Source: a virus (lineage: Duplodnaviria > Caudoviricetes). From it: a stretch of 64,000 nt of DNA. Shown one piece after another: positions 31,686 to 54,500 of this stretch. The stretch lies in the IMG/VR virus record IMGVR_UViG_3300033555_000001, positions 160,001 through 224,000 of that record. One strand, 5' to 3'. Every line of letters begins with the position of its first letter. Position 1 is the first letter of the stretch. Position numbers and translations under genes: made by a program. The notes below the pieces were generated by a model. The model made no database searches. It saw only the letters and a program-made list of their open reading frames with translations, and had not been told where the DNA came from.

Positions 31686-31970
31686 ATGAAATTTCTGAAA
31701 ATTGCGTTCCACGCCGATACCGAGGAATCACTGGACTCGATTCTTGAGTACATGAAAACGACGCTAGACAGAAATGAAATAGTTACAGAAGATGGCTTTA
31801 CGTACATTGAGATCCTTACCGACGCCGAGTTGGTGGATGAGCTGATTTGCCTTGGCGGTTGCCTGCTGGAGCTTGACAATGATGGTTATGAGGACGCGTT
31901 TTTTGTCGAGATCGTGGAGCTTGATGTTGCTCCAGTGGACTGCGACGCACCACCGCAGTACTTGCAGTGA
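31686..31970 (+). CDS. Acidic hypothetical protein
   Basis: GGAG Shine-Dalgarno; ends APPQYLQ*. Confidence 0.55.
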   Translation: MKFLKIAFHADTEESLDSILEYMKTTLDRNEIVTEDGFTYIEILTDAELVDELICLGGCLLELDNDGYEDAFFVEIVELDVAPVDCDAPPQYLQ

Positions 31971-31975
31971 GCGAT
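31947..31975. repeat. 29-nt direct repeat A (second copy at 32581-32609)
   Basis: GCACCACCGCAGTACTTGCA(G/A)TGAGCGAT, 28/29 identical. Confidence 0.9.
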
Positions 31976-32560: not shown

Positions 32561-32600
32561 CTGCGCTGGTGGGCGGTGGTGCACCACCGCAGTACTTGCA

Positions 32601-33224
32601 ATGAGCGATATTAATCTGATAAGAGCTTTGACAGGCAATAACCGAATTGAGCGAATTAGGCAGGCTAGGCTTGATTCAAGTTTCAATACAGTTATTGCAA
32701 TATTAAAAGAATATTGCAGTGCAATACCAGCCTTTTCAGCGGACACAATTGGTCAAGAATTATTCGATGAGGTTAACAATATTGTCATCATTGCGAATTT
32801 ACAGCCAGACCAAAAAAGATCAAAGGCTAAAAAAGAAGCTGATTTTAAGAGGGGGATGTTTTGCGAGTGCATGGTACGAGACGTGTTGCGTTTAGCACTT
32901 GCAGAAATTGGATGGAAATGCGAGTGGCCCAACGATTCTGGGCCACGTGACCTAATTCTGACTAGCCCCGCAAAAATTAGATTTTTAGTAGATGTGAAAA
33001 CAAAGGCTGTTTTACCTGGCAAATCTGGAACTGTTACGTGTTCAGAGTCTGAGGCAAGAGCGCTGGTTAACGGCATGTACAAAAATGAAAAAATAGATGA
33101 AATACTATTAGCAATATTTAACATAAGCACAGCTGGAATTTATACATTTGCGGACGTTCGCCGCGCAAAAACAGAAGCATGGAGTCTGAGTGAGGATGGC
33201 TGCAGCTGGTATTTTGAATTTTAA
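32601..33224 (+). CDS. PD-(D/E)XK nuclease-like protein
   Basis: GPRDLIL...LVDVKTK resembles a PD-(D/E)XK motif. Confidence 0.45.
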   Translation: MSDINLIRALTGNNRIERIRQARLDSSFNTVIAILKEYCSAIPAFSADTIGQELFDEVNNIVIIANLQPDQKRSKAKKEADFKRGMFCECMVRDVLRLALAEIGWKCEWPNDSGPRDLILTSPAKIRFLVDVKTKAVLPGKSGTVTCSESEARALVNGMYKNEKIDEILLAIFNISTAGIYTFADVRRAKTEAWSLSEDGCSWYFEF

Positions 33225-38910: not shown

Positions 38911-40791
38911 ATGACTCTGCCTATTACCAAATGTCCTGAAGGAGTTGGATCTATCTACGCCGATGGAACACGCACTGTGGGCGGTGTAGTTCCAGGCGGA
39001 TCAGTCGTTGGTGCCAGCACCGGTAACAGGTACACGCACACAAATCCATACGTGACGCCTGACATCTGCCTTGGCACTTTTAATCTGCTGGACTGTCAAG
39101 ATCTCTACCAGGAGCAATTGGCCGCTGAAAATTTAAATATCAGCGGTGCTCCATTAAACGTCTTTAAACTGCTTGGCGTACACGAGCAGGGAAAATTAAT
39201 CGATTTAGTCGGTGGTGGTCAGGCGCTAAACAGTACGGCACCTGCGTTTGACACCTTAGAATCAAACTGGGTGAGCGACCAGACGGGCATGGGGGTACTG
39301 ACTGCGCCATCATGGATTGGTTATGACTTTGGCACTATTAAGACTTCATTTGGACAAGACACCACTGCACCTGGATCACCAGCCGCCCAGCACATTACCT
39401 CTCTTAGAATAAGTCAGCCATCTAATGGTCGCCGCGCCCTACAAATAAGAGTAGATCGCAGTACTGGTGGCTTTGCGGTGGATCCACTTAAGGTGCAGTA
39501 CACTGGAACCGGTACTGGCTATTTTGCCGATTTTGCGTCAGGTGCCGGTGCCACCCCGGGATCTTTTATGCTCCTGGCTAATACTCCCACAAGCTTTACC
39601 GTTTACTACACCACGGCCACAACGGAGGTGGTAGGCGTGCTTACCGTTGGCGTTAGATTCAATTCACCATACGGTTCTTTTGTTGTACAAGCTGGCGCTG
39701 TGCCCTTTGGTGTTGGCGACATGTTCAGAGTGCCAGTTGAGCTTGAGTGGTACCGAGTTGATGTTGTTAACTTGCCAGACGTTCCAACCCCTGCGTTAAT
39801 TCGTATTAAGCAGTCATCGCCCTCGCGGTACTGGCGTGTTGTGCCAACATCGTTCAGCGGCGTCACGAGCGGTGAGGCGTGGGAAGTTGAGCAATTAGAA
39901 CTCTTTGACTTTCAAGCCACTCGTCTTGACGATGTTCAGGATCAGTTGTTTCTTGAAAACAGGGATCGGGACTATGCTAAACAGTCAGTGCAGTTTAAGG
40001 TAACTTACCAGCCATTTGACTCGCAGTCTGATCTCTCCAAATTCGGCTTTCAAGTATCAGACATTTATTCGTTTACTACTGTATTCAGCACAATGGTGCG
40101 TGCTCTTGGCCGGCCAATTGTAATTGGCGACGTGCTTGAAGTACCAAGTGAAATGCAGTACGATCACAACCTACGGCCAGTCCGAAAATTTCTAACGGTT
40201 ACTGATACTGGCTGGGCCAGTGACGGTTATACCACAAGCTGGCGGCCTATTACCTTTAAATTTCAGGCTGAACAGCTAATCCCAAGCCAAGAAACCAGAG
40301 ATATATTGGGAACGGTAGACACGCAAAAGTACGCCATTGATGACAGCGACTTTTTTGCCGGTATTCAGCAAATTCAAACTGGCCCGCTTACCTCCACCGA
40401 GGCAACAAACGCTGAGGCCGCCCTTGCAACGCCGGAAAAAGGCGAGCAATCACGTGAACTGGCCTCTGGAACAAATAGATTCCAGCGCCCTGGCAGCACA
40501 GATCAAGTAGGCCTCTACGTTGAAGATGGCCTGCCGCCCGGCGGCTTACCGTACACCGAAGCCTTTAAGCTGCCAGATGTAGGTGGTGCAGTTGACGGCC
40601 AGTATTTCAGGCTGAACTACGATCCAAAATTAAATATTGCTTCTCGACTGTACAAATTTAATGGTATTAAAAATACCTGGATGTACGAGGAAACTGACCG
40701 CCGCAGTGAACGCAACAGCATGAAACCATCGCAGCGTGAAGTGTTTAACCAACCTATTGTTGCATCGCTTACCACAAAGAGGATTACATGA
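38911..40791 (+). CDS. Neck protein gp14-like with inserted domains
   Basis: ENLNISG, LFLENRDRDY, DLSKFG and RPIVIGDVLE motifs. Confidence 0.8.
   Translation: MTLPITKCPEGVGSIYADGTRTVGGVVPGGSVVGASTGNRYTHTNPYVTPDICLGTFNLLDCQDLYQEQLAAENLNISGAPLNVFKLLGVHEQGKLIDLVGGGQALNSTAPAFDTLESNWVSDQTGMGVLTAPSWIGYDFGTIKTSFGQDTTAPGSPAAQHITSLRISQPSNGRRALQIRVDRSTGGFAVDPLKVQYTGTGTGYFADFASGAGATPGSFMLLANTPTSFTVYYTTATTEVVGVLTVGVRFNSPYGSFVVQAGAVPFGVGDMFRVPVELEWYRVDVVNLPDVPTPALIRIKQSSPSRYWRVVPTSFSGVTSGEAWEVEQLELFDFQATRLDDVQDQLFLENRDRDYAKQSVQFKVTYQPFDSQSDLSKFGFQVSDIYSFTTVFSTMVRALGRPIVIGDVLEVPSEMQYDHNLRPVRKFLTVTDTGWASDGYTTSWRPITFKFQAEQLIPSQETRDILGTVDTQKYAIDDSDFFAGIQQIQTGPLTSTEATNAEAALATPEKGEQSRELASGTNRFQRPGSTDQVGLYVEDGLPPGGLPYTEAFKLPDVGGAVDGQYFRLNYDPKLNIASRLYKFNGIKNTWMYEETDRRSERNSMKPSQREVFNQPIVASLTTKRIT
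40768..40791. repeat. 24-nt direct repeat (gp14 3' end; second copy at 41232-41255)
   Basis: CTTACCACAAAGAGGATTACATGA vs CTTGCAACCAAGAGGATTACATGA, 21/24 identical. Confidence 0.7.
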
Positions 40792-41222: not shown

Positions 41223-41251
41223 GCAATATAACTTGCAACCAAGAGGATTAC

Positions 41252-41695
41252 ATGAGATTAGATGAAATTAAAAAGCAGCTCACCCGCGCAGAAAAAGACG
41301 CCAAGCGAGATGCTGGTAAGAATGAACTGGCCAAGATTGATGCCGCAAACAAAGAAAAAGCGCTTGCAGCCAGGGATGCTAAGTACAACAACGGTGAGGC
41401 TCTTACAATTAAGCTCCCGGTAATTGGATCTAATGGTAAAATTACTACTCAGGAATTTATAATTGATAACTACCTGAAGCAGCGGCACGCCATGCAGGAT
41501 GTGCGGTTAAAGGATTTGAGCAAAGTGCCAGCTCTGCCCGGCGATCGTAAAGAAAAATCTTCATTTATTATTGACATGAATACCAAACACACAGAAGGTT
41601 CAATTGCCGCGTATTTGCACGGGCTGCCAAGTGGCACAAAACGCAAGGCTGGTGCAGAGCCAAACGATTTTAGACGAGAAGCGTACACGGCGTAA
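41252..41695 (+). CDS. Basic hypothetical protein
   Basis: Leader MRLDEIKK. Confidence 0.55.
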   Translation: MRLDEIKKQLTRAEKDAKRDAGKNELAKIDAANKEKALAARDAKYNNGEALTIKLPVIGSNGKITTQEFIIDNYLKQRHAMQDVRLKDLSKVPALPGDRKEKSSFIIDMNTKHTEGSIAAYLHGLPSGTKRKAGAEPNDFRREAYTA

Positions 41696-42611: not shown

Positions 42612-42953
42612 ATGATTAGATTACCGCGATTAGAACTTTTAGCAGAACGGTTAAATCCAACTGATGGGCTGTTTAACGGTACAGGCCCGCAGTACAGGGC
42701 GGTGCTTCAAGCGTTTAAAAATGCCAATGGAATACAGCAAACTACTGATAAGTGGGCTGTCGCAGAAGATCCGTGGGCCGACAGCGTTTACCTTATAGTC
42801 CGGTGTTCCGACAAGAATGAGGTTACTGGTTTTGTATTTTTTAGAAAAGACAAGAGCACTAAAGTAGTACCTAACTTGCCGCCAAAAATGAGACGAGTTG
42901 GCATGGATGATTTGCTTCAGCACCTGACTGAAATTGGTGCTGAATTTAAATGA
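42612..42953 (+). CDS. Hypothetical protein
   Basis: Starts MIRLPRLELLAE; its stop overlaps the next start. Confidence 0.5.
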   Translation: MIRLPRLELLAERLNPTDGLFNGTGPQYRAVLQAFKNANGIQQTTDKWAVAEDPWADSVYLIVRCSDKNEVTGFVFFRKDKSTKVVPNLPPKMRRVGMDDLLQHLTEIGAEFK

Positions 42954-44527
42954 TTACTTTCAAAGAATACTTGCTGGAGAAAGCCTTGAATAGGGGCGTG
43001 TACCTTGACGTGATTAAGAAGCTCGCTGGTAAGGCGCTAGTCGGCCTTGAGATTGAAGCACGTGTGCCACCAGAATCACCGTCGTTTAGGCTGACAAAAC
43101 CGGCAGATCGGCGAACTGAAGATGTGCGCGAGTACAGCACTCTTGCAGATTTTTCAGAGAGCTTTTTAATCTCACCGACAGTTTTACGACAAATTACAGG
43201 CGACTTTGCTGGTTGGAGTGCCGCTCAAGAAGACGACTGGGTTGAGGACAATTGGGAAAGCTATATTGACGCTGATGAAGTTGAAGCAAGCGGAGACGCA
43301 AGAGCAGAGAAAACTGCCAGACGTGCCGCACTGGGCGATCATAAATCTGCAGATCACGGCTGGTCAGAATGGTTTACAACATTTAAAAATGTGACTGATT
43401 TTTTAGACATATACGAGTTAGAGCCAAAACATGGCTGGGTAGAAGACAACAAGTTCTTGGTGTACATGGCACTAGATGCTGCAGATACCGCTGATTCAAG
43501 TTGGGAGTCTACAGCTAATCACTTTGGTGCCTTGATGTCAGCTGCCATTGGCGACAAAGTAACTGTTAAAGATGCACCAGGTGCTGATTACTCCTCTTGG
43601 AAAATTGTACCAGATACAAGCATTACTAATGGCGGGCTTGGCACCAACACTGATGGTGATCTTACTGGCGTTGGAATTGAACTTGTGTCTCCGCCACTTC
43701 CCGTTGATACAGCAATTGATCAGCTCACCACAATCTTTAAGCTCATGACTGATCAGGGGCTGGACACAAACACGAGCACTGGTATCCACATTAATATTTC
43801 TGTTCCTGAGCTGGCTAAAAACCTAGATCCGCTGAAACTGGTCTTGTTTATGGGCGACGAGCACGTGCTGAAAGTGTTTGATAGATCAGCTAATCTCTTT
43901 ACGCGCTCTCAGATCTCGAGCATTATCGATGGCATTCAAATCACAGGCACTGTTCCATCTACAGGTGCTGAGTTAATGGATGCAGCACGCCAGTCACTCA
44001 GCCAGGCAAAGTACCGATCAGTTAACCTAGGGCATGTTGAAAAAGGATATTTGGAATTCAGAGCGTCGGGCGGCGTGAACTACCACAAAAAATTAGACTT
44101 AATAGTCGATACAATCGGCCGTTGGTTAACTGTAGTTGATATTGCTACAGATCCTGCTCTACTTAGAAATGAGTACCTTAAAAAAGTTGCAAAGTTATTA
44201 GGCCGTACTAGCGCTGAAAAAGATAAAGCACAGCACTCTGATGTAAGTTTAAAAGAACTTGTGATTAGTACTGCACGCAATAAAGAGGATGGAGAATCCC
44301 TATGGATTGACTTGCAGCAGCGTTCTGTGGTTGGTTTTGACGCATTAGCTAAATTCGCTATTAACGTTGCAAGAAGCTCGATATCAAAGCCAAGTGTTAA
44401 ACAAATTATGGATGTTAAAAATTTATTTAAGACTCTGTCTGTTACTGTTGCGGATATGGTTGAACAAGATCCAGATGTTGAAGTTCTGTTTAACAGATTC
44501 GCAGAGATGTTTAAACTACAAAAGTAG
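42950..44527 (+). CDS. Putative amidoligase (COOH-NH2 ligase type 2) with capsid-targeting-like leader
   Basis: VGLEIE, WKIVPDTSI, GIELVSPPL, STGIHINIS, KYRSVN and YLEFR motifs; leader MITFKEYLLE. Confidence 0.8.
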   Translation: MITFKEYLLEKALNRGVYLDVIKKLAGKALVGLEIEARVPPESPSFRLTKPADRRTEDVREYSTLADFSESFLISPTVLRQITGDFAGWSAAQEDDWVEDNWESYIDADEVEASGDARAEKTARRAALGDHKSADHGWSEWFTTFKNVTDFLDIYELEPKHGWVEDNKFLVYMALDAADTADSSWESTANHFGALMSAAIGDKVTVKDAPGADYSSWKIVPDTSITNGGLGTNTDGDLTGVGIELVSPPLPVDTAIDQLTTIFKLMTDQGLDTNTSTGIHINISVPELAKNLDPLKLVLFMGDEHVLKVFDRSANLFTRSQISSIIDGIQITGTVPSTGAELMDAARQSLSQAKYRSVNLGHVEKGYLEFRASGGVNYHKKLDLIVDTIGRWLTVVDIATDPALLRNEYLKKVAKLLGRTSAEKDKAQHSDVSLKELVISTARNKEDGESLWIDLQQRSVVGFDALAKFAINVARSSISKPSVKQIMDVKNLFKTLSVTVADMVEQDPDVEVLFNRFAEMFKLQK

Positions 44528-44626
44528 GATGAATTTTGGTGGAACATCCTGCCCGGCCCTAAATACACAGACAAACAACAAGCGATCAATTTTGATCCTT
44601 TTAAATCCAGTAGGAGATTAACAAAA

Positions 44627-46471
44627 ATGGCAACACTCGTTTCCCCAGGTGTTTCAGTCTCAGTCACCAACGAGAGCTTCTTTCTTCCAGTAACTGCACC
44701 TACCGTGCCGGTTATCTTTATCGCCACAAAGAGCGGTAAACTGCAACCAAACGGTATTACCCCCGCAGCTGGTACTCTAGAATTTGGCGTCGTTCGTACG
44801 GTTACTTCGGTCCCACAGTCTGTTGAGCTCTTTGGCGTGCCCCATTTCCGCAACGATGTTTCGGGTAATGAGTTCCACGGTGATGCTCGCAATGAATATG
44901 GTCTCTTGGCGCTAAACCAATTTTTAGCAGCTGGTAATCGCGCGTACGTTGTTCGCGCAAATATTGACCTAACCGACGAACCAGAAACATTCATGTCGCT
45001 GGGAACACCAGGCTTGGTTGGCTCATCTGTTTCGTACAACGGCATTGGCGATGGTTCAATTGAATCAATCACAGCGGTAAGTAATGCCGTGAAGCCTCAG
45101 CTGTTTGCAGTACTGTTTACTTCACCAACGTCCTTTTCGGTTACAGGCGCACTGTCTGGCTACATTGGCGCTGGTAACGTAGATGCTGCCTTTACCTCGT
45201 CTAAAATTAACTTTACTGTTATGTCTGGCGCAGTGCCATTTAGCGCTGGCGACACATTCACGTTTAACATGGCCCATATGGCTGTTGCTGCAGGCAGCAA
45301 TACTGGTAATGGTTCTGTTGTTTCACTAACAGTTGATACACTTGCGCTGCCTGAAACTATTACTGTTCTGATGACATCAGCGTCTGCGTTTCAGGTTAAC
45401 AGCACAGTTTCAATGATTGAAAACGGCGTTGTCGGTTCGGCATTTGATAACAACCGCGTTAACTTTACTGTTCAGGCTGGCACCGTTCCATTTGTTGCTG
45501 GTGATGAGTTCACAATCACTGTAAGTTCAGTAACTGTAAGTGCTCCGCTGGGCGCTAACGATGCAGCAAAACGTGTTGCTATTGTTACCGCACTGCAAGC
45601 CGCAATTAACAGCAATGGTGATGTCCGGTCGGAACTCTATGAGTTTAACTTGATTGCTTGCCCAGGTTATCCAGAAGTTGCAGATGAATTACATTCGCTG
45701 AGCGCGTCAACAAAGCAAGAGTCTTTGGTTATTGCTGACACCCCGTGTGATAAATCACCGGATCAAGTTGCACAGTGGGCACTAACATCTGCTCGTGCTG
45801 CAGGCGAAGACATTGCGTATTACTATCCATGGTGCCTGACATCTAACCTTGACGGCCGCGACGTACTTGGCGCACCATCGGGTACTGCTCTTCGCACCAT
45901 AGCGTTCAGTGATCAACAAGGTTATGTATGGTCTGCTCCAGCCGGAGTATCAAATGGTGTGGTGTCTGGCGTATCTCGTCTGGCCTATATAACTGGCACC
46001 AAGGGTACTGCAACCACGCTGATTGAGACTAATCTAAATCAGGGTCAACGCGATAACCTGTACGAATACGATAAAAACATTAACCCAATCTCGTTCTTCC
46101 CGGGCCGTGGATTTATGTTGTTTGGACAGAAAACTTCAGCACCAGCAGCAAGTGCTCTTGACCGCATTAACGTTGCACGACTGGTTATGTACTTGCGTCG
46201 TACACTGCGCAAAGGTGCGTTGCCATTTGTTTTCCAACCAAACGATCAAATCACACGTGATAACTTGAAAGCCGCAGCCGATGGTATCTTGAATGATGTA
46301 TTGACTAAGCGTGGATTATATGATTTTGCCACTCAGTGCGATACTAGCAACAACACTGCGGTAAGAATAGATCGAAACGAGCTGTGGTTAGACGTTGCAA
46401 TCAAGCCAACGAAAACAGCCGAATTTATTTATATCCCGATCCGTGTTGTTAGTACTGGTGCAAATATCTAA
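44627..46471 (+). CDS. Tail sheath protein (gp18-like)
   Basis: MATLVSPGVSV, KNINPI, ALDRINVARL and PTKTAEFI motifs. Confidence 0.97.
   Translation: MATLVSPGVSVSVTNESFFLPVTAPTVPVIFIATKSGKLQPNGITPAAGTLEFGVVRTVTSVPQSVELFGVPHFRNDVSGNEFHGDARNEYGLLALNQFLAAGNRAYVVRANIDLTDEPETFMSLGTPGLVGSSVSYNGIGDGSIESITAVSNAVKPQLFAVLFTSPTSFSVTGALSGYIGAGNVDAAFTSSKINFTVMSGAVPFSAGDTFTFNMAHMAVAAGSNTGNGSVVSLTVDTLALPETITVLMTSASAFQVNSTVSMIENGVVGSAFDNNRVNFTVQAGTVPFVAGDEFTITVSSVTVSAPLGANDAAKRVAIVTALQAAINSNGDVRSELYEFNLIACPGYPEVADELHSLSASTKQESLVIADTPCDKSPDQVAQWALTSARAAGEDIAYYYPWCLTSNLDGRDVLGAPSGTALRTIAFSDQQGYVWSAPAGVSNGVVSGVSRLAYITGTKGTATTLIETNLNQGQRDNLYEYDKNINPISFFPGRGFMLFGQKTSAPAASALDRINVARLVMYLRRTLRKGALPFVFQPNDQITRDNLKAAADGILNDVLTKRGLYDFATQCDTSNNTAVRIDRNELWLDVAIKPTKTAEFIYIPIRVVSTGANI
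46409..46471. repeat. 63-nt direct repeat: last codons of the sheath gene (second copy at 48465-48527)
   Basis: 58/63 identical by manual alignment. Confidence 0.95.
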
Positions 46472-46493
46472 GTGATATAATAACGTTATAAAC

Positions 46494-46517
46494 AAAGGCA
46501 GATAGTATCTGCCTTTT
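46494..46517 (+). terminator. Terminator after the sheath gene
   Basis: AAAGGCAGATA-G-TATCTGCCTTTT. Confidence 0.7.
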
Positions 46518-46561
46518 CTTTGTCATTATTTTTGAATATTACGCTACCTTAAAAAGTCATT

Positions 46562-47989
46562 ATGCCAACATGTAAAATATGCGGATACGCTCATGAGATA
46601 ATGATTCACTTTACTCATATCAGAAAACATGGTATGACGGTTCAGGAATATAAGCTAAAATTTCCCGGAGCCGCGCTGCGTGTGCAGAGCGAAGAATCTA
46701 AATTAAAAATGTCGGCCTCTAAAACAGGAAAGCCTTCTGGACTAAAGGGGAAAATCAGGTCTGAAGAACACTCTAAAAATATATCGGCCGCGCTAAAAGA
46801 AGCTTACTCTTCAGGAAAAATACAACATTGGAACTCAGGTAACACTACTCCACTGTGCGTTAAGGAAAAAATTGCGCAGGGAAATAGAGGCACAATAAAT
46901 GCTGGAAACATAAAGCAAAAGTTAAAAAAGCAGGAGAGAATTAAAGCCGGTGCCATAGCGTTTGGCTGTGAAGTGTTAAGCTGTGATGTAGAAGAACGCA
47001 CCACAGTAAAGTGCCTTGAATGTAAACACGTGTTTAGTTTTACAAACCAAATATTTTATGAAACTCGTTTAGAAAAGACTGGAAAGCTATGCCCGTCTTG
47101 TCAACCGCGAATTACATATTCTTCTGCGGGTGAGCAAGAGCTATTAAATTTCATCAAGTCAGTTTATGCTGGAATAATAATACCCAATGACCGAGGCGCT
47201 CTTGGAGGAAAAGAATTAGACGTTTATTTACCTGAACTCAAGATTGCATTTGAGTACACGGGGTTGTATTGGCACGCTGAAAAACAGAACCCAATAAACA
47301 AGCACTTGTTGTGGAAGAGAGACTTTGCGTTCAATCAAGGAGTCGAACTAATTACTGTGTTTGAAGATGAGTGGCACGATAAACAAGACATTGTTAAGTC
47401 TAGAATTATGAACATGCTAGGTCTTCAGGGTTTTAAATCTGCGGCCAGAAAATTAAAAATAGGTGTTCCATCCGTTAAAGAGAAGAATTTATTTCTGACT
47501 GAGAATCACTTGCAGGGTAGAGATACAAGTTCTGACTGGGCTGCGCTTATGGATGGTGGCGAGATCGTGTGCATTGCCACTTTTAAGAAAACTAGTATAT
47601 CAAAAGGCGGTTCTGGTGATCAGTGGGAATTAAGCAGGTTTGCATCAAAATTAAACACCCAGGTGCAGGGCGGAGCCAGCAGGCTTGTAAGCTGGTTTGT
47701 GCGCAAATACAAAGCAGACCTGGTGTCTTACGCTGATTCTAGATGGAGCACTGGAAAACTTTATAGAACTATGGGATTTGATTTTATCCATCGCTCTTCT
47801 CCAAGCTATTGGTACTTGTTAGATGGTTACAAACGACGCGTGCACCGCTCTGCGTTCATGAAACATCGACTTGTAAAATGTGAAGAGGATAAAGCTTTTA
47901 CGGAATGGGAACTTGCTCAGCAAGCAGGCATGGATCGCATTTGGGATTGCGGCACAACAAAGTGGCTGTTAAAGTACAATCCAAATTAA
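46562..47989 (+). CDS. Hef-like homing endonuclease with GNAT-like C-domain
   Basis: ELDVYLPELKIAFEYTGLYWH; CLEC/CPSC zinc ribbon; ELSRFAS; SYADSRWSTGKLY; IWDCG. Confidence 0.75.
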   Translation: MPTCKICGYAHEIMIHFTHIRKHGMTVQEYKLKFPGAALRVQSEESKLKMSASKTGKPSGLKGKIRSEEHSKNISAALKEAYSSGKIQHWNSGNTTPLCVKEKIAQGNRGTINAGNIKQKLKKQERIKAGAIAFGCEVLSCDVEERTTVKCLECKHVFSFTNQIFYETRLEKTGKLCPSCQPRITYSSAGEQELLNFIKSVYAGIIIPNDRGALGGKELDVYLPELKIAFEYTGLYWHAEKQNPINKHLLWKRDFAFNQGVELITVFEDEWHDKQDIVKSRIMNMLGLQGFKSAARKLKIGVPSVKEKNLFLTENHLQGRDTSSDWAALMDGGEIVCIATFKKTSISKGGSGDQWELSRFASKLNTQVQGGASRLVSWFVRKYKADLVSYADSRWSTGKLYRTMGFDFIHRSSPSYWYLLDGYKRRVHRSAFMKHRLVKCEEDKAFTEWELAQQAGMDRIWDCGTTKWLLKYNPN

Positions 47990-48033
47990 GTGTACACTTT
48001 TTACTGAATAAAGTATTATATCCATCCCAGCGC

Positions 48034-48041
48034 TATAAATA
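48034..48041 (+). promoter_or_regulatory. Perfect T4-type late promoter TATAAATA
   Basis: Exact match to the T4 late consensus, upstream of 48077. Confidence 0.75.
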
Positions 48042-48076
48042 AGTATGTTCAACGTTTACACACCAAAAGGAACACA

Positions 48077-48430
48077 ATGACATACATCGCTGAATTAAAT
48101 CGTACACGGCATCTTGCTGGCTTACAGCCGCTGTCAGAGGCTCAAACGTCAAAAATCTCTTCAGAGCTTAATGAAGCGTTTATCGAGCTAGATTGGGCTC
48201 TTGGTAATACGCCTAAAGAAGTTGAAAAGCTCGTTAAAGCAGCTGCAGAAAAAGAAGACTTAAAAGCAGAAATCATCACAATGGACGGCCCGGGCGGTGG
48301 CAACCCGCTTGTAAGATTCTCAGGTAAAAAAGCTAACATTAAGAAGTTTCTAGTAACATATTGCCATGGCGACGAAACTGAAGCAGATTTCATGATGAAT
48401 GACATTGGTCATAAGCAAGGGACTAGATAG
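48077..48430 (+). CDS. Putative head-internal protein with LNRxRxLAG leader
   Basis: MTYIAELNRTRHLAGLQPLSE; late promoter and AAGG Shine-Dalgarno upstream. Confidence 0.6.
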   Translation: MTYIAELNRTRHLAGLQPLSEAQTSKISSELNEAFIELDWALGNTPKEVEKLVKAAAEKEDLKAEIITMDGPGGGNPLVRFSGKKANIKKFLVTYCHGDETEADFMMNDIGHKQGTR

Positions 48431-48548
48431 GTATCTTTTTGCGGACCAACGTACTTATTCACGTACGAAAACATCCAAATTTATTTATATCCCAATCCGC
48501 GTTGTTAGTACTGGCGCAAATATCTAAAGCAGCAATTAAGCAATAATG

Positions 48549-48575
48549 AAAGGGACCCGAAGGTCCCTTTTTATT
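48549..48575 (+). terminator. Intrinsic terminator after the orphan sheath-end copy
   Basis: AAAGGGACC-CGAA-GGTCCCTTT followed by a T tract. Confidence 0.8.
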
Positions 48576-48581
48576 TGAGCT

Positions 48582-48878
48582 TTATTCTCTAGTTTCAACA
48601 ACCGTGCGTTTAACTCTGCTAATCATAACGGTTGCTTTAGTGCCACTTTTGATAGCTGCTCGTGTGAAATGAGATCTAATATCAGAAGCCCAGCCACCCC
48701 ATACTGGGCCGTATTCTACGTCCATTGAGATTGTGTTCTGGTTATTTGGTCCTGGTATAATCGTTTTCTTACGGACAGTGATTGTCCCAGGTAAAAAGCT
48801 TTCAATTTGCTTGAGAAGCTCGAGTTTGCCGCCCTGAATTTGTACTTCGGCTGTGAGGAGACCCTTGGTCTTTTGCAT
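48582..48878 (-). CDS. Hypothetical protein
   Basis: AGGAG Shine-Dalgarno upstream. Confidence 0.55.
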   Translation of the reverse strand: MQKTKGLLTAEVQIQGGKLELLKQIESFLPGTITVRKKTIIPGPNNQNTISMDVEYGPVWGGWASDIRSHFTRAAIKSGTKATVMISRVKRTVVETRE

Positions 48879-48981
48879 GTTAATGCTCCTGATTAGAATG
48901 CTGCAGCAGGTCGCCGCAGTAAAGGAATTCTAAGCTAGTATGATTTTTCAGTAATATTAGGAATCAGGTTAGGCGACAAAG

Positions 48982-49776
48982 TTAGGAAAGTATTGTCTTT
49001 AATCTGACTAACTCCTGCTTTTGTTTGTGCTTCCACAAGAGCTCCCAAAACTCATGAATTACAATTCCCTGCTCTGCAGCGTATGCAAGTTTATCAGCTT
49101 CGCGTGACCCATCGCCTGGGTGCCAGTATTCACCGTGGTATTCAAAACCAATTTTTAAATCTGGAAGATAGATGTCAATTTCTTTTGGCTTTATCGCTTG
49201 GCGATCATTCACAATAATCCGACCAGTATATAGTGCTTTCACGGCCTCATACAGTTCACCTTGCCCCCGAGATACATGGCAGGACGGACACCAAATACCA
49301 GTCACGCGAGTAAACGGCCGGCTAAAAACTTCACCGCATATATGGTGCCACTTGTATTCGTTTTGCATGCCAGGAATAATCTCATCAACTGGTGTAATGC
49401 CCTTTACTGCAAGTTTATCAAGCTTAGCCTGCGCACGATTGTTGAAGTGCGCGCTTTTCATGTCATAAGAAGTCTGCGCTTTCCATTCAGGATCTGCCCA
49501 GAGCTTTTCGTGACGTATAGATTTTTCTGGAGCTAATAATGCTTGAGCACACTTCATTGAACACACTTTTCTGTAACCCACTGTGTAATTTATCCAGTTT
49601 GTTAGCTTTCCGCAGTAACATGTTGGCCGTATGTTTAAGACGTTCCAGGCCTTCTCGGAAATGCTATTACCATGATATTCATTCAACCATATTAGGCGCT
49701 CAGCGTTGCGCCATTTACCAGCACAATATTTGCCATCTTGGAACAAGGCAACGATGAGTTCAGTTTGTTTTGTCAT
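48982..49776 (-). CDS. Short Hef-like endonuclease (no GNAT-like C-domain)
   Basis: CYCG...GYRKVCS; EIDIYLPDLKIGFEYHGEYWH. Confidence 0.7.
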   Translation of the reverse strand: MTKQTELIVALFQDGKYCAGKWRNAERLIWLNEYHGNSISEKAWNVLNIRPTCYCGKLTNWINYTVGYRKVCSMKCAQALLAPEKSIRHEKLWADPEWKAQTSYDMKSAHFNNRAQAKLDKLAVKGITPVDEIIPGMQNEYKWHHICGEVFSRPFTRVTGIWCPSCHVSRGQGELYEAVKALYTGRIIVNDRQAIKPKEIDIYLPDLKIGFEYHGEYWHPGDGSREADKLAYAAEQGIVIHEFWELLWKHKQKQELVRLKTILS

Positions 49777-49881
49777 TCGCTATTTAGAGTAATTTTTGAT
49801 TGAAACCTTGTAATCTGTAGATAAACCCATAAATACACTGAAGCTGCTCAAGCTGTACAAACCTTAATAGGAGTTATCAAA

Positions 49882-50475
49882 TTGGCAACATTATCGAATT
49901 TCGGAATTCCCGGCGCAGGTTCGGGAATCCTTCACCCAAAAATGCGTAATAAATGGAGGGTGACATTTCAGGATATTAGTCGCCTAGTATCTGGCGCAAA
50001 CAGCCGTAACCTTACAATGCAGGCAGTTACTGTTAGCCGCCCACAAATTGAATTTGAAGAAGTTGCAATTCACCGCTACAATTCAACTGCTTATATTGCC
50101 GGCAAGCACACATGGTCACCAATGAGTTTGACGGTAGACGATGATATTACTGGTCTAGCATCAAAAGTTGTTAAGGGCCAACTTGAAACACAGCAGCGCC
50201 TTGTTGGTGTTGACTTGGACGGCCGCTGGTTGAATACTGCAGCTACTGGTTCAGACTATAAATTTGGTGTTAAGCTTGAGCAATTAGACGGCGATGAGGG
50301 TGTTGTTGAATCGTGGATCCTTGAAGGCGTAATGATTCAGGCTGCCGATTTTGGTGAAGGCGATTATTCTTCTTCAGAGGCTATGACAATTCAGCTAACG
50401 CTGCGTTTTGATCACGCGCGCTGTATTGACGCTGGTGAGGGTTATGGAAGCGCGTTAGGCGGAAACGTTTCTTAG
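49882..50475 (+). CDS. Tail tube protein (gp19-like)
   Basis: TTG start; VSRPQIEFEEV, AGKHTWSPM and IQLTLRFD motifs. Confidence 0.9.
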   Translation: MATLSNFGIPGAGSGILHPKMRNKWRVTFQDISRLVSGANSRNLTMQAVTVSRPQIEFEEVAIHRYNSTAYIAGKHTWSPMSLTVDDDITGLASKVVKGQLETQQRLVGVDLDGRWLNTAATGSDYKFGVKLEQLDGDEGVVESWILEGVMIQAADFGEGDYSSSEAMTIQLTLRFDHARCIDAGEGYGSALGGNVS

Positions 50476-50487
50476 TAATTTTTTAAA

Positions 50488-50512
50488 TTTAAAGGGCCTG
50501 CTTTTTGCAGGC
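50488..50512. repeat. 25-nt direct repeat of the tube-gene terminator (second copy at 50830-50854)
   Basis: 23/25 identical; only the downstream copy keeps the full AAAGGGCCTG/CAGGCCCTTT stem. Confidence 0.75.
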
Positions 50513-50524
50513 TTTTATTGGATC

Positions 50525-50812
50525 TTGGAGAATAAATTGAATCTTGTTGAAACATTAAACAGAGCACGCGAGCTTGCCGGAATGGAGCCGCTGTCAGAAG
50601 CTGCAGCCAAAAAAATATCTAGCCCGTCATATAAAATTACATGGGAGGGTTATCCAAATAATCCTAAGCCAGAAACTCATGGCATTGAGTATTTTACAGA
50701 TGACCTGGCATTTGACAATGATGATCGTAATAAAATTAAAGATCTCGGAGTTGGCGACAAACATGTTATGGCTGGTCCTATGGACTCCGTCACGGTTGTT
50801 CGGATAAAGTAA
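50525..50812 (+). CDS. Putative head-internal protein with LNRxRxLAG leader
   Basis: ...VETLNRARELAGMEPLSE. Confidence 0.55.
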   Translation: MENKLNLVETLNRARELAGMEPLSEAAAKKISSPSYKITWEGYPNNPKPETHGIEYFTDDLAFDNDDRNKIKDLGVGDKHVMAGPMDSVTVVRIK

Positions 50813-50933
50813 TCTAGTTAAAAGTAGTTTTTAAAGGGCCTGTTTCTTGCAGGCCCTTTTAGTATGCGCAGTAGATTAATACACACGCTTGAGTATAGCT
50901 AAATATCTTATTACTTTATAGCCTGGAAATATA

Positions 50934-51245
50934 ATGAAACTTAGCGAAATTATTGGCGAGTCAGCGGTTAGTTACACGGTTCAGCCGACAAAACGATTTT
51001 GGCTGGTATTTGCCGAGCCCACATCCTTTAAGCAGTTAACACAGGATAAAAAATTCCTGGCGCACGCCGGCCCGCACACTACTTTTTTAGACGTTTCAGA
51101 TGTTGAAGATGTTAAACTGTCTCCTGGCGAAAATAAGTGGAATGCTATGAAGCGGCTTTATAGTAATGACGAAGATGAAATCACTTGCTCCAACTCTGGT
51201 GTTCCAACAGAATGGGTGTGTCTTGCAATCAACGTGTCCATCTAA
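50934..51245 (+). CDS. Putative head-internal protein
   Basis: Leader MKLSEIIGE; late promoter upstream. Confidence 0.55.
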   Translation: MKLSEIIGESAVSYTVQPTKRFWLVFAEPTSFKQLTQDKKFLAHAGPHTTFLDVSDVEDVKLSPGENKWNAMKRLYSNDEDEITCSNSGVPTEWVCLAINVSI

Positions 51246-52537: not shown

Positions 52538-52983
52538 TGGCCGGAACACGCAAAACATTTCAGGGAAGATTTATGCCTAAGAACCCAGGTAAATACTTGG
52601 GCAACGTTGGGAAAATAATTTTTCGATCAGGTTGGGAACTGCGAATGTTTCAGTGGTTTGATGCTACCCCATCTGTTTTACAGTGGGCAAGCGAAGAGTT
52701 TTCAGTTCCATATCTGTCACCACTTGATAACAAAGTGCACCAGTACTATCCGGATGCGTTTGTCATCTATAAAGATAAGTTTGGAAATTTGCAAAAAGAA
52801 ATTATTGAAATTAAACCGTACAAAGAAACAGTGCTTGGCCCAAAATCAACAGAGCGTGACAAGTTAGCGTGGGTAGTTAATCAGGCTAAATGGAAAGCTG
52901 CCGCACTGTTTGCTGAGCAACAGGGCTCTAAGTTCCGAGTAGTAACAGAAAAGTCTATGTTCGCCAATGGAAAAACAAAATGA
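52537..52983 (+). CDS. Head completion nuclease (gp4-like, TnsA-type)
   Basis: FMPKNPGKYLG, FRSGWE, WASEE, YYPD and EIKP motifs. Confidence 0.9.
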   Translation: MAGTRKTFQGRFMPKNPGKYLGNVGKIIFRSGWELRMFQWFDATPSVLQWASEEFSVPYLSPLDNKVHQYYPDAFVIYKDKFGNLQKEIIEIKPYKETVLGPKSTERDKLAWVVNQAKWKAAALFAEQQGSKFRVVTEKSMFANGKTK

Positions 52984-52984
52984 T
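52970..52984. repeat. 15-nt exact direct repeat at the stop/start junction (second copy at 53449-53463)
   Basis: GAAAAACAAAATGAT flanks ORF 52980-53462. Confidence 0.6.
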
Positions 52985-53462
52985 TCTTTTGCGAGAACTG
53001 TTGGGCAGCCCTCTCGAATATACTTGGGTACAGCAACACGATGCTTACTGGAGAGCAGAATTTTTTGTTAATGGAGTTAGTTACTCAGTTATTGCAAGTG
53101 AAGAAAATAATTTTAAAGATGAAGGCGGAAATGATGCCGTGTATTGGGAAATATCGTTTGCGCAAACTGAAAAATCATTGACTGGAACTAAAACTAATTC
53201 TGGTGGAGAGTTACAAGTTTTTTCAACCGTTCAAGCAGCGGTGTTTGATTTCTTAGATCAGAAAAAACCCGATTGGATTGGCATAAGCTCAACTAAAAAA
53301 GAAGAGAACAGATTTAATTTATACTTACGAATGATCAACCGGTTAACGAGTAAACTTAACGGTATGGGTTATTCTTTGCATTCGTGCCCAACTTATGGAG
53401 ACACGTCTATCCAGCAATATCTGGATCAATATGAAACTTATTGCATGAGAAAAACAAAATGA
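52980..53462 (+). CDS. Putative head-internal protein, paralog of 55890
   Basis: Leader MILLRELLG; WEISF...NSGGELQVFSTV. Confidence 0.6.
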   Translation: MILLRELLGSPLEYTWVQQHDAYWRAEFFVNGVSYSVIASEENNFKDEGGNDAVYWEISFAQTEKSLTGTKTNSGGELQVFSTVQAAVFDFLDQKKPDWIGISSTKKEENRFNLYLRMINRLTSKLNGMGYSLHSCPTYGDTSIQQYLDQYETYCMRKTK

Positions 53463-53905
53463 TACCTTCAAAATTTAGTAATCCTCTTGATAGTCTTTTT
53501 GACATTGAAGCGGGTGATCGTGACGAGATGCAGGAATACGTCTCCACAACTGAAAATGAGATAACGGCACAGGCCCCTGCTGTAGTGGAAAAAGATCAAG
53601 AGGACATTGATACTGATCGTAAAATAGACGAGGTGTATGATACTGCGCTTAACTCATTTCAAGAACTAGTAGCGTACACGCAGATTATTGAGCCGCGCTA
53701 CGCAGCCCGCAATGCGGAAGTTGCTGCCACGTACTTAAGCCTGGCACTGCAGGCTGCTACTTCAAAGGCTAAGTTAAAAACCGACCGCAAGCGCGTTGCA
53801 ACGTTTATTCCAGGCGGTAACAAGGTTACTAACAATACTGTTGTGTGTTCAAGAGAAGAAATTATGCGAATGATTTCTGTAGATGCTGAAGTCAAGAAGA
53901 TCTAA
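53459..53905 (+). CDS. Terminase small subunit-like (gp16-like)
   Basis: Helical EPRYAARNAEVAATYLSLAL...NNTVVCSREEIMRMI; upstream of the large terminase. Confidence 0.6.
   Translation: MIPSKFSNPLDSLFDIEAGDRDEMQEYVSTTENEITAQAPAVVEKDQEDIDTDRKIDEVYDTALNSFQELVAYTQIIEPRYAARNAEVAATYLSLALQAATSKAKLKTDRKRVATFIPGGNKVTNNTVVCSREEIMRMISVDAEVKKI
53864..53905. repeat. 42-nt direct repeat: 3' end of the small terminase-like gene (second copy at 54349-54390)
   Basis: 38/42 identical; 3 of 4 differences are synonymous. Confidence 0.9.
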
Positions 53906-53928
53906 TTATTAGACAAGGGAGATACACA

Positions 53929-54342: not shown

Positions 54343-54500
54343 AATAACATGCGAAAGATCTCTGTAGACGCTGAAGTCAAGAAGATTTAATTTACTAAAC
54401 AGATGTACATTAATTTAACAGATGTACATTAATGTTGCCATTAAATAACTGAGTCCTGTCTAGCCAGACTCTCTAAATACTCGACAACCTGGAGATAGCC

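Follow-up and report, generated by a model that had tools for sequence, protein, structure and literature searches.

The DNA analysed here, hereafter the window, is a stretch of 64,000 nucleotides (bases 160001-224000) of the 310,728-bp IMG/VR virus record IMGVR_UViG_3300033555_000001, which was recovered from an ice (glacier) metagenome. The window belongs to the genome of a jumbo (giant) phage of about 311 kb. The tail sheath proteins of the jumbo phages RsoM2USA, XacN1 and PA5oct and of the Rak2/121Q group share 41-55% identity with the one encoded here. Its gene is complete, and the last 63 nt of the gene are found a second time beyond a 2-kb segment. This segment holds a free-standing homing endonuclease gene (HEG) of the Hef-like kind, encoding a protein of 475 aa, and a small gene that we call cargo117. 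Beyond the second copy, a further open reading frame (ORF), named ORF98, and a second HEG are found on the opposite strand, and the tail tube gene comes after them (Table 1).

Table 1. Features of the sheath-tube locus and of similar gene-end duplications elsewhere in the phage genome (window positions unless stated otherwise).
Feature	Position	Strand	Remarks
Amidoligase-like gene	42950-44527	+	
Tail sheath gene, 614 aa, complete	44627-46471	+	PF17482 E=4e-10; phrog_10581 E=2e-152
Repeat copy R	46409-46471	+	Working last 20 sheath codons and stop; peptide TKTAEFIYIPIRVVSTGANI
Terminator 1 (intrinsic)	46494-46516	+	Scan: 10-bp stem, then T-run; 23 nt past sheath stop
Hef-like HEG, free-standing, 475 aa	46562-47989	+	phrog_3339 E=3e-85; phrog_559 E=2e-82
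TATAAATA box	48034-48041	+	Upstream of cargo117; candidate promoter
cargo117, small gene, 117 aa	48077-48430	+	phrog_5922 E=1.6e-6; N-terminal LNRxRxLAG leader
Repeat copy R'	48465-48527	+	Orphan sheath 3' end and stop; peptide TKTSKFIYIPIRVVSTGANI
Terminator 2 (bidirectional)	48549-48570	both	Scan match on minus strand; 21 nt past orphan stop
ORF98, function not assigned	48582-48878	-	Convergent with the cassette; no family matches
Second HEG, 264 aa	48982-49776	-	phrog_559, phrog_3339; abuts tube gene
Tail tube gene	49882-50475	+	phrog_4542 E=5e-41; 60-87% identity to relatives
orf95, small gene downstream of tube	50525-50812	+	Leader common with cargo117
Sister repeat, 44 nt	53864-53907 / 54349-54392		40 identical; 3 of 4 differences synonymous, one replacement near orphan 5' end
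Sister repeat, 24 nt	40768-40791 / 41232-41255		
Sister repeat, 20 nt	52970-52989 / 53449-53468		
Sister repeat, 29 nt	31947-31975 / 32581-32609		
Sister repeat, 30 nt	genome 230791-230820 / 231138-231167		100% identical

The two copies of the sheath end, R in the gene itself and R' downstream, are identical at 58 of 63 nt. The match was significant in a blastn comparison with the whole 310,728-bp genome (E = 2e-19), in which no third copy was found at the DNA or at the peptide level. R is the in-frame true end of the 614-aa sheath ORF, as residues 1-614 align end to end with about 90 relatives (49-86% identity) and the C-terminus aligns with all of them. R', on the other hand, sits in no credible ORF. 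The only frame running through it is a 42-aa ORF that starts inside cargo117, and translation of R', whether as this ORF or as a frameshifted extension of cargo117, was rejected on account of the absence of a ribosome-binding site, the +1 frame with respect to cargo117 and the loss of a conserved Glu. Homology to the sheath gene begins abruptly at 48465, making 48464/48465 the presumed illegitimate junction, and it ends at the stop codon. Two of the five differences fall within the first 13 nt of the repeat and are replacements from R to R' (GCC/TCC, Ala to Ser; GAA/AAA, Glu to Lys), the Glu being invariant among relatives, and the remaining three (CCG/CCA, CGT/CGC and GGT/GGC) are synonymous third-position changes. 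Each copy is followed by its own terminator hairpin. The one behind R' is bidirectional, since the plus strand, read directly, continues with the T-run TTTTTATTT. No inverted repeats were found at the ends of the insert. The sequence-only reading that drew attention to this locus had described the repeat, the five differences, with the three synonymous ones in the 3' 50 nt, and a terminator behind each copy, and the alignment, the genome-wide blastn comparison and the hairpins bear it out on all of these points.

The 475-aa protein begins with a Cys/His module, which in homologues scores as a MucR-type finger, followed by NUMOD3 (residues 40-75), a zinc ribbon (about 150-181), a nuclease domain resembling Vsr and I-Bth0305I (about 190-290) and a Mom/GNAT-like C-terminal domain (about 290-475), which could be a DNA-binding module or provide a self-protection activity. 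Its gene is free-standing, being an ORF of its own between terminator 1 and the next gene, with no intron model. The protein is 34-41% identical (E 1e-44 to 1e-60) to products annotated as 'Hef-like homing endonuclease', to Hef60 and Hef71 of Campylobacter phages, and to proteins of the Bacillus jumbo phage Internexus and of PA5oct. With these identities and the phrog_3339 match, the name Hef-type endonuclease given to the enclosed gene beforehand is acceptable at current annotation practice, the label 'Hef-like' being itself an annotation transfer by others. In an alignment of 13 members of the family (A1), Cys of the zinc ribbon and residues E218, D220, E231, H238 and K252 are invariant. The A1 profile matched the I-Bth0305I catalytic domain (PDB 3r3p, E=4.6e-7) and the GNAT fold (2bsw, E=1.4e-5). 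Pfam assigned REase_MTES_1575 (PF18741) to five of the 13 members, Vsr to one and the Mom family (PF25680) to six, and PF05443 was matched in family members as well. The nuclease catalytic core is thus recognisable from the profile, from Pfam and from the invariant acidic, His and Lys residues. The genome contains five genes of this endonuclease family in total.

Proteins of about 317 aa are encoded directly after the sheath gene at three of the related loci described below (L028:9947-10897, L092:1155-2111 and L020:9653-10606). They have the same N-terminus of MucR-type finger and NUMOD3 as the 475-aa protein and another C-terminus, which is HNH-like by eye (..QVDH..N..) and has no nuclease match in Pfam. 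It appears from these sequences that one targeting module has been joined to two different nucleases.

For comparison, related sheath loci were collected from IMG/VR (59 loci) and from metagenomes (40 loci), with sheath identities of 49-86%; the latter came from a scan with the sheath protein, the best of them being 84-86% identical over partial genes. In many relatives the tube gene directly follows the sheath gene, with a gap of 23 bp in L010 and of 80-140 bp in L011, L005, L012, L036 and L090. In others the gap measures 1-7 kb (more than 7 kb at most) and is occupied by Hef-like genes, in either orientation, or by unrelated small genes. The sheath-tube gap is therefore a landing site for HEGs in this phage group, a hotspot that is newly recognised here. 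Plus-strand genes with the N-terminal module of the 475-aa protein are found about 100 nt past the sheath stop in L058 (52% identity over the full length), L091/L025 (38-48%), L030 (53%, truncated) and PA5oct/Deifobo, where the positional orthologue carries a Hef-like annotation. The occurrence of the gene at this locus is sporadic: it is present in L058, L091, L030 and PA5oct and absent from the closest relatives L096, L104, L072 and L003. A related phage without the endonuclease, about 80% identical and with a sheath-tube gap of about 330 nt, is present in the very sample from which the window comes.

None of these relatives has a second sheath end. A peptide motif search of the relatives found none, and when each of 88 sheath ends was searched at the DNA level for a downstream copy of its own last 120 nt, the window was the only one to give a match (E = 1.5e-20). 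Likewise, neither the insert nor the repeat was found among the 40 metagenome loci. According to the sequence-only reading, the duplication should be missing from relatives that lack the Hef gene, and it is indeed missing from them among the 88 ends compared. Its assumption that the duplication is a property of the inserted element fares otherwise, because orthologous HEGs are located at this position in L058, L091/L025, L030 and the PA5oct group as well, and no repeat accompanies them there. As no relative has a second sheath end, the duplication is a one-off scar and not a feature of the element. An exact scan of IMG/VR for the junction of R' with terminator 2 found nothing, and no close relatives of the Hef-like gene or of ORF98 were found in IMG/VR; for the second HEG, the search gave only orthologues of 59% identity. 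Megablast of positions 44000-51000 against 50,697 phage records returned zero matches, and an exact-protein look-up of ORF98 and cargo117 matched the source sample only.

We favour, with a confidence that is only a little above even, the explanation that R' is the scar of one-sided homing, in which a homologous crossover in the sheath gene and an illegitimate join on the right-hand side stacked a foreign sheath end, a HEG and a passenger gene beside the resident allele. One parent would have carried a sheath gene with an end of type R, terminator 1, the Hef-like HEG and a small gene; the other would have carried a sheath gene with an end of type R', terminator 2, ORF98, the second HEG on the minus strand and the tube gene. 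A double-strand break in or near the conserved 3' end of the sheath gene, most likely made by the Hef-like enzyme, would have been repaired from the other genome, on the left through a normal homologous crossover within the sheath gene. Because the gaps of the two parents hold different cargo, homology would have been missing on the right, and the copied tract would have been joined illegitimately to the recipient at 48464/48465, 63 nt before the recipient's own sheath stop. The resulting genome would then have an intact sheath gene that terminates in the incoming sequence, the two HEGs and, just before terminator 2, the displaced native end as a dead relic. We infer the break, its author, the direction of the transfer and the identity of the HEG that drove the event from the arrangement of the locus; a mirror version, in which the block of ORF98 and the 264-aa gene arrived from the right and was joined illegitimately on its left, is equally possible.

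Several observations are in agreement with one-sided homing. The two unrelated terminators at nearly equal distances behind the stop codons (23 and 21 nt), together with a similarity that ends at the stop, are what the 3' regions of two sheath alleles would look like. At the three synonymous sites, the states of the orphan (CCA, CGC and GGC) match L096, L003 and L022 at three of three and L104 and L006 at two of three, and those of the working copy (CCG, CGT and GGT) are the rarer ones. The working copy has the ancestral state at both replacement sites, and the changes of the orphan (at Ala and Glu) both lie at most 13 nt from the junction. The earlier idea that a replacement end was brought in with the Hef-like gene is probably right in outline and fits the finding that it is the orphan that has the synonymous states of the nearest relatives, but it errs in making the repeat and the small gene components of a defined two-gene element. 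Moreover, a relative in a second glacier metagenome is about 90-93% identical to the window at 45126-45954 (sheath) and 47606-47921 (475-aa gene) and 100% identical at 48695-48922 (ORF98) and 49425-49622 (264-aa HEG). The switch in identity falls within 47922-48694, an interval that includes the orphan. The two halves of the locus therefore differ in history, and the pattern points to a recent exchange of the right-hand block.

The comparison of sheath ends also suggests where such an enzyme might cut. The peptide AEFIYIPIR is near-invariant in the relatives, and its codons are conserved even at the nucleotide level, as GAATTCATCTACATCCCAATCCG; both copies in the window read TTT ATT TAT at these codons. 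A change of Phe to Tyr (GAATAT; AEF to AEY) is found in four of the eight sequence clusters that have a module-bearing endonuclease gene just downstream and in none of the 51 clusters without one (Fisher p = 1.5e-4, a value computed over clusters that takes no account of phylogeny). The Tyr variants are L020/L045/L076, L021/L084, L025/L091 and L058. This distribution points to a target overlapping the AEFIYIPIR codons, as would be expected if carriers escape by substitution, with Phe to Tyr as the candidate immunity change.

The enclosed small gene had been taken as the second component of the element, with a late promoter of its own, and neither view is supported. No cargo117 homologue was found beside any orthologous HEG in the relatives. 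The likeness of cargo117 to orf95, behind the tube gene, is confined to the N-terminal leader LNRxRxLAG(L/M)xPLSEA (55% over 29 aa; 48077-48163 and 50537-50623), of which the genome has two copies only, and the leaders are considered paralogous. In the endonuclease-less L072, the sheath-tube gap is filled by a small gene whose leader shows weak similarity (local alignment score 43), and an orf95-like gene is found behind the tube gene in L071 and L013. Thus, cargo117 is better read as a local small gene of the late region, either a co-converted passenger or already resident, than as a component of an element. The box TATAAATA in front of it shows no enrichment in the window, with three matches against 2.2 expected (the remaining two fall in R and R', read on the reverse strand), and this count gives no support to a T4-type late promoter for cargo117. 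As for the right-hand block, the 264-aa HEG has the same nuclease core as the 475-aa protein in A1 and is without the Mom-like C-terminal domain. Its orthologues, with 49-59% identity, are found on the minus strand beside the tube gene in L007, L066, L048/L073 and L045.

Further direct repeats of the same kind were verified in this genome, in which the last codons of a gene and its stop recur just past an inserted small ORF, the insert having no HEG (the five sister repeats in Table 1). In the longest of them, a 154-aa ORF (ending in MRMISVDAEVKKI before the stop) provides the first copy, and the orphan lies past an inserted 137-aa ORF with the leader MQLLQELLG. With five such duplications lacking a HEG, these scars are a general by-product of gene gain in this phage, and endonuclease cleavage is likely a trigger for them and not a necessity. 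In packed operons, only junctions that keep the start signals of the downstream gene would be viable, and these signals would lie in the last codons of the upstream gene, which may be why the repeats end at the stop codon. When the six cases are pooled, four of about 13 differences are replacements, a synonymous excess over drift that by our own binomial estimate has p ~0.03. This excess favours origins from two genomes without settling the matter. Taken together, the six cases suggest that this jumbo phage routinely gains small genes by one-sided recombination with its relatives among phages.

Some points must be set against one-sided homing at the sheath locus. The evidence from the second metagenome consists of low-depth contig fragments, none of which extends across the junction. 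No close relative (>90% nucleotide identity) with either parental arrangement was recovered that would fix which parent was the donor and which the recipient. The copies differ at only five sites, and their synonymous bias is weak when taken alone (p ~0.06 against drift after duplication, by our own estimate). In addition, the five duplications without a HEG raise the possibility that a general, endonuclease-independent insertion process could explain the sheath case too. Finally, GAATTT (Phe) is still present in the working copy. Immunity is therefore not evident in the proposed target codons, and a putative immunity of the working copy, if any, must lie elsewhere.

A first alternative is an insertion that made its own duplication, comparable to a long target-site duplication: the 2-kb segment entered by template switching or staggered-break repair, in the course of which the terminal 63 nt of the sheath gene were copied, and the copies, identical at first, drifted afterwards. 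The six gene-end duplications of 20-63 nt that flank inserts, most of them HEG-less and one (30 nt) 100% identical, fit this explanation and suggest that duplications are made routinely, and the two replacements in the orphan are as neutral decay would give. However, the expected rate of change is about four times lower for a working copy than for an orphan, yet here the working copy would carry three of the five changes, and at the three synonymous sites it is this copy, not the orphan, whose states differ from those of the nearest relatives. The pooled synonymous excess also speaks against drift, and the equally spaced terminators resemble the native 3' regions of two sheath genes. We therefore regard a self-made duplication as unlikely, although it is the best of the alternatives.

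Somewhat more doubtful is the integration of a circular cassette of the Campbell type. A small circle made up of one sheath end, terminator 1, the Hef gene and the small gene would have entered by a single crossover in the 63-nt homology, leaving two hybrid repeats and permitting re-excision and spread to any related sheath gene. A crossover in the central 17-nt stretch would indeed place the relative-like states on the left in R and on the right in R', as is seen, and repeat-flanked small cassettes recur in the genome. Arbiol et al. reportedly proposed repeat-bounded mini-circles in 2010 for the hyperplastic regions of T4-type phages. On the other hand, no circular or deleted form was found among the contigs of the only sample with the locus, the orthologous HEGs of relatives have no flanking repeats, and a prior illegitimate event would be needed to build the circle in the first place. 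Going further, the flanking copies might serve as portable homology arms, the six repeat-bounded inserts forming one cassette-exchange system whose members loop out and re-enter related genomes by single crossover. We consider this improbable; if it were true, a cassette could enter at the conserved gene end of any related genome regardless of the sequence downstream of it, and an endonuclease that makes the break would make its own cassette the most successful.

It is very improbable that the assembly fused two strains living in the same sample, of which one had the insert and the other lacked it. The contig is metagenomic, and the endonuclease-less phage of about 80% identity in the same sample would offer a second strain. 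However, a separate assembly of this sample (Logan) contains a 48.9-kb contig with an even depth of 24 that covers positions 44000-51000 with no differences, an agreement that, coming from the same sample, is not an independent biological replicate. Since the longest exact run common to R and R' is 17 nt, below usual k-mer sizes, collapse of k-mers during assembly is also unlikely. Among sequencing runs, the repeat junction was found in the source run and in no other. An intron or other spliced or bypassed segment, with R' as the real last exon, can be set aside almost entirely: endonuclease genes often reside in group I introns and R' has the orientation of the sheath gene, but positions 44000-51000 match no group I, group II or other Rfam family even at E up to 1, the unspliced gene already gives a full-length sheath with the consensus end, and use of R' would put Lys for an invariant Glu, with a terminator in between. 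A transposon or insertion sequence was rejected, as there are no terminal inverted repeats and no transposase family, and the repeat is 63 nt long with five mismatches.

The sheath gene has other features of its own. It contains an internal 55-nt repeat (45207-45261 and 45459-45513, 75% identity; NFTVMSGAVPFSAGDTFTF and NFTVQAGTVPFVAGDEFTI), which is a tandem duplication of a small insertion domain, and comparable domain-sized matches occur in other genes of relatives (e.g. L016 991-1233). The sheath and tube genes have in common an upstream box, CC(C/A)TAAATACAC(A/T)GA, located 40-70 nt before their starts (44557-44571 and 49827-49841), which may be the late promoter of this phage. In relatives, TAAATA boxes were observed behind the sheath terminator.

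The spread of free-standing HEGs is generally attributed to ordinary homologous repair, a process without lasting traces. At this locus a trace would have survived in the displaced gene end, which would mark precisely where a single acquisition was joined on the right. It can be seen from this arrangement how two selfish genes that compete for one gap may become stacked in one genome, and how passenger genes may get carried in. Moreover, the comparison of about 90 sheath loci gives a concrete candidate target, the AEFIYIPIR codons in the C-terminal arm of the sheath, and a candidate immunity change, Phe to Tyr. Current models are not overturned by this case; they are documented in nature.

The closest parallel in arrangement is provided by the mORFs of fungal mitochondria, in which an endonuclease ORF brings a foreign C-terminus and the native one is left downstream (Allomyces macrogynus atp6; Glomus atp6, atp9, cox2 and nad3; PMC3630166). 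In both situations an endonuclease ORF stands at the 3' end of an essential gene, an in-frame C-terminal piece upstream of it completes the gene, and a displaced C-terminus, in the phage only presumably the native one, remains unexpressed downstream. In both, too, the piece that completes the gene, in the phage the presumed incoming one, differs synonymously from relatives, and a horizontal origin from a relative has been inferred. Unlike the mORFs, the phage HEG has no in-phase fusion to the sheath gene, from which a stop codon, a terminator and 90 nt set it apart, and it resides in a phage and not in an organelle. Its nuclease is of the Vsr/EDxHD-like type, whereas mORFs encode LAGLIDADG or GIY-YIG enzymes. 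The duplicated piece in the phage is 63 nt long and 92% identical, and a second gene lies between the repeats.

With regard to mechanism, the td intron of T4 is a demonstrated case of one-sided homing in which illegitimate junctions form at microhomology (Parker et al. 1999, as summarised in PMC2988022). According to this summary, homology on one side supports the transfer, and on the other side resection is followed by sealing at microhomology, from which ectopic junctions result; a similar course is proposed here. The system summarised there is an engineered one of plasmid and phage with an intron endonuclease; the present case would be a natural footprint around a free-standing gene. Intronless homing with co-conversion is also known for free-standing HEGs of T4-type phages, namely SegF, SegG, SegB, MobE and the Hef of phage U5 (PMC2988022, PMC2790892, PMC2330249). 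Like them, the 475-aa gene is located between conserved genes, is sporadic, probably cuts in a conserved neighbour and would drag flanking markers along. Those genes, in contrast, leave no duplicated gene end, and the Seg enzymes are of the GIY-YIG and the Mob enzymes of the HNH type, the domain set here being another. The nuclease core is homologous to that of I-Bth0305I, an EDxHD, PD-(D/E)xK enzyme from a Bacillus prophage intron (PDB 3r3p). However, I-Bth0305I is intron-encoded and has other DNA-binding parts, and the 475-aa protein adds the MucR-type finger, NUMOD3 and the Mom/GNAT-like domain. Seen beside these systems, the sheath-tube locus is a natural footprint of known processes and not a new kind of element.

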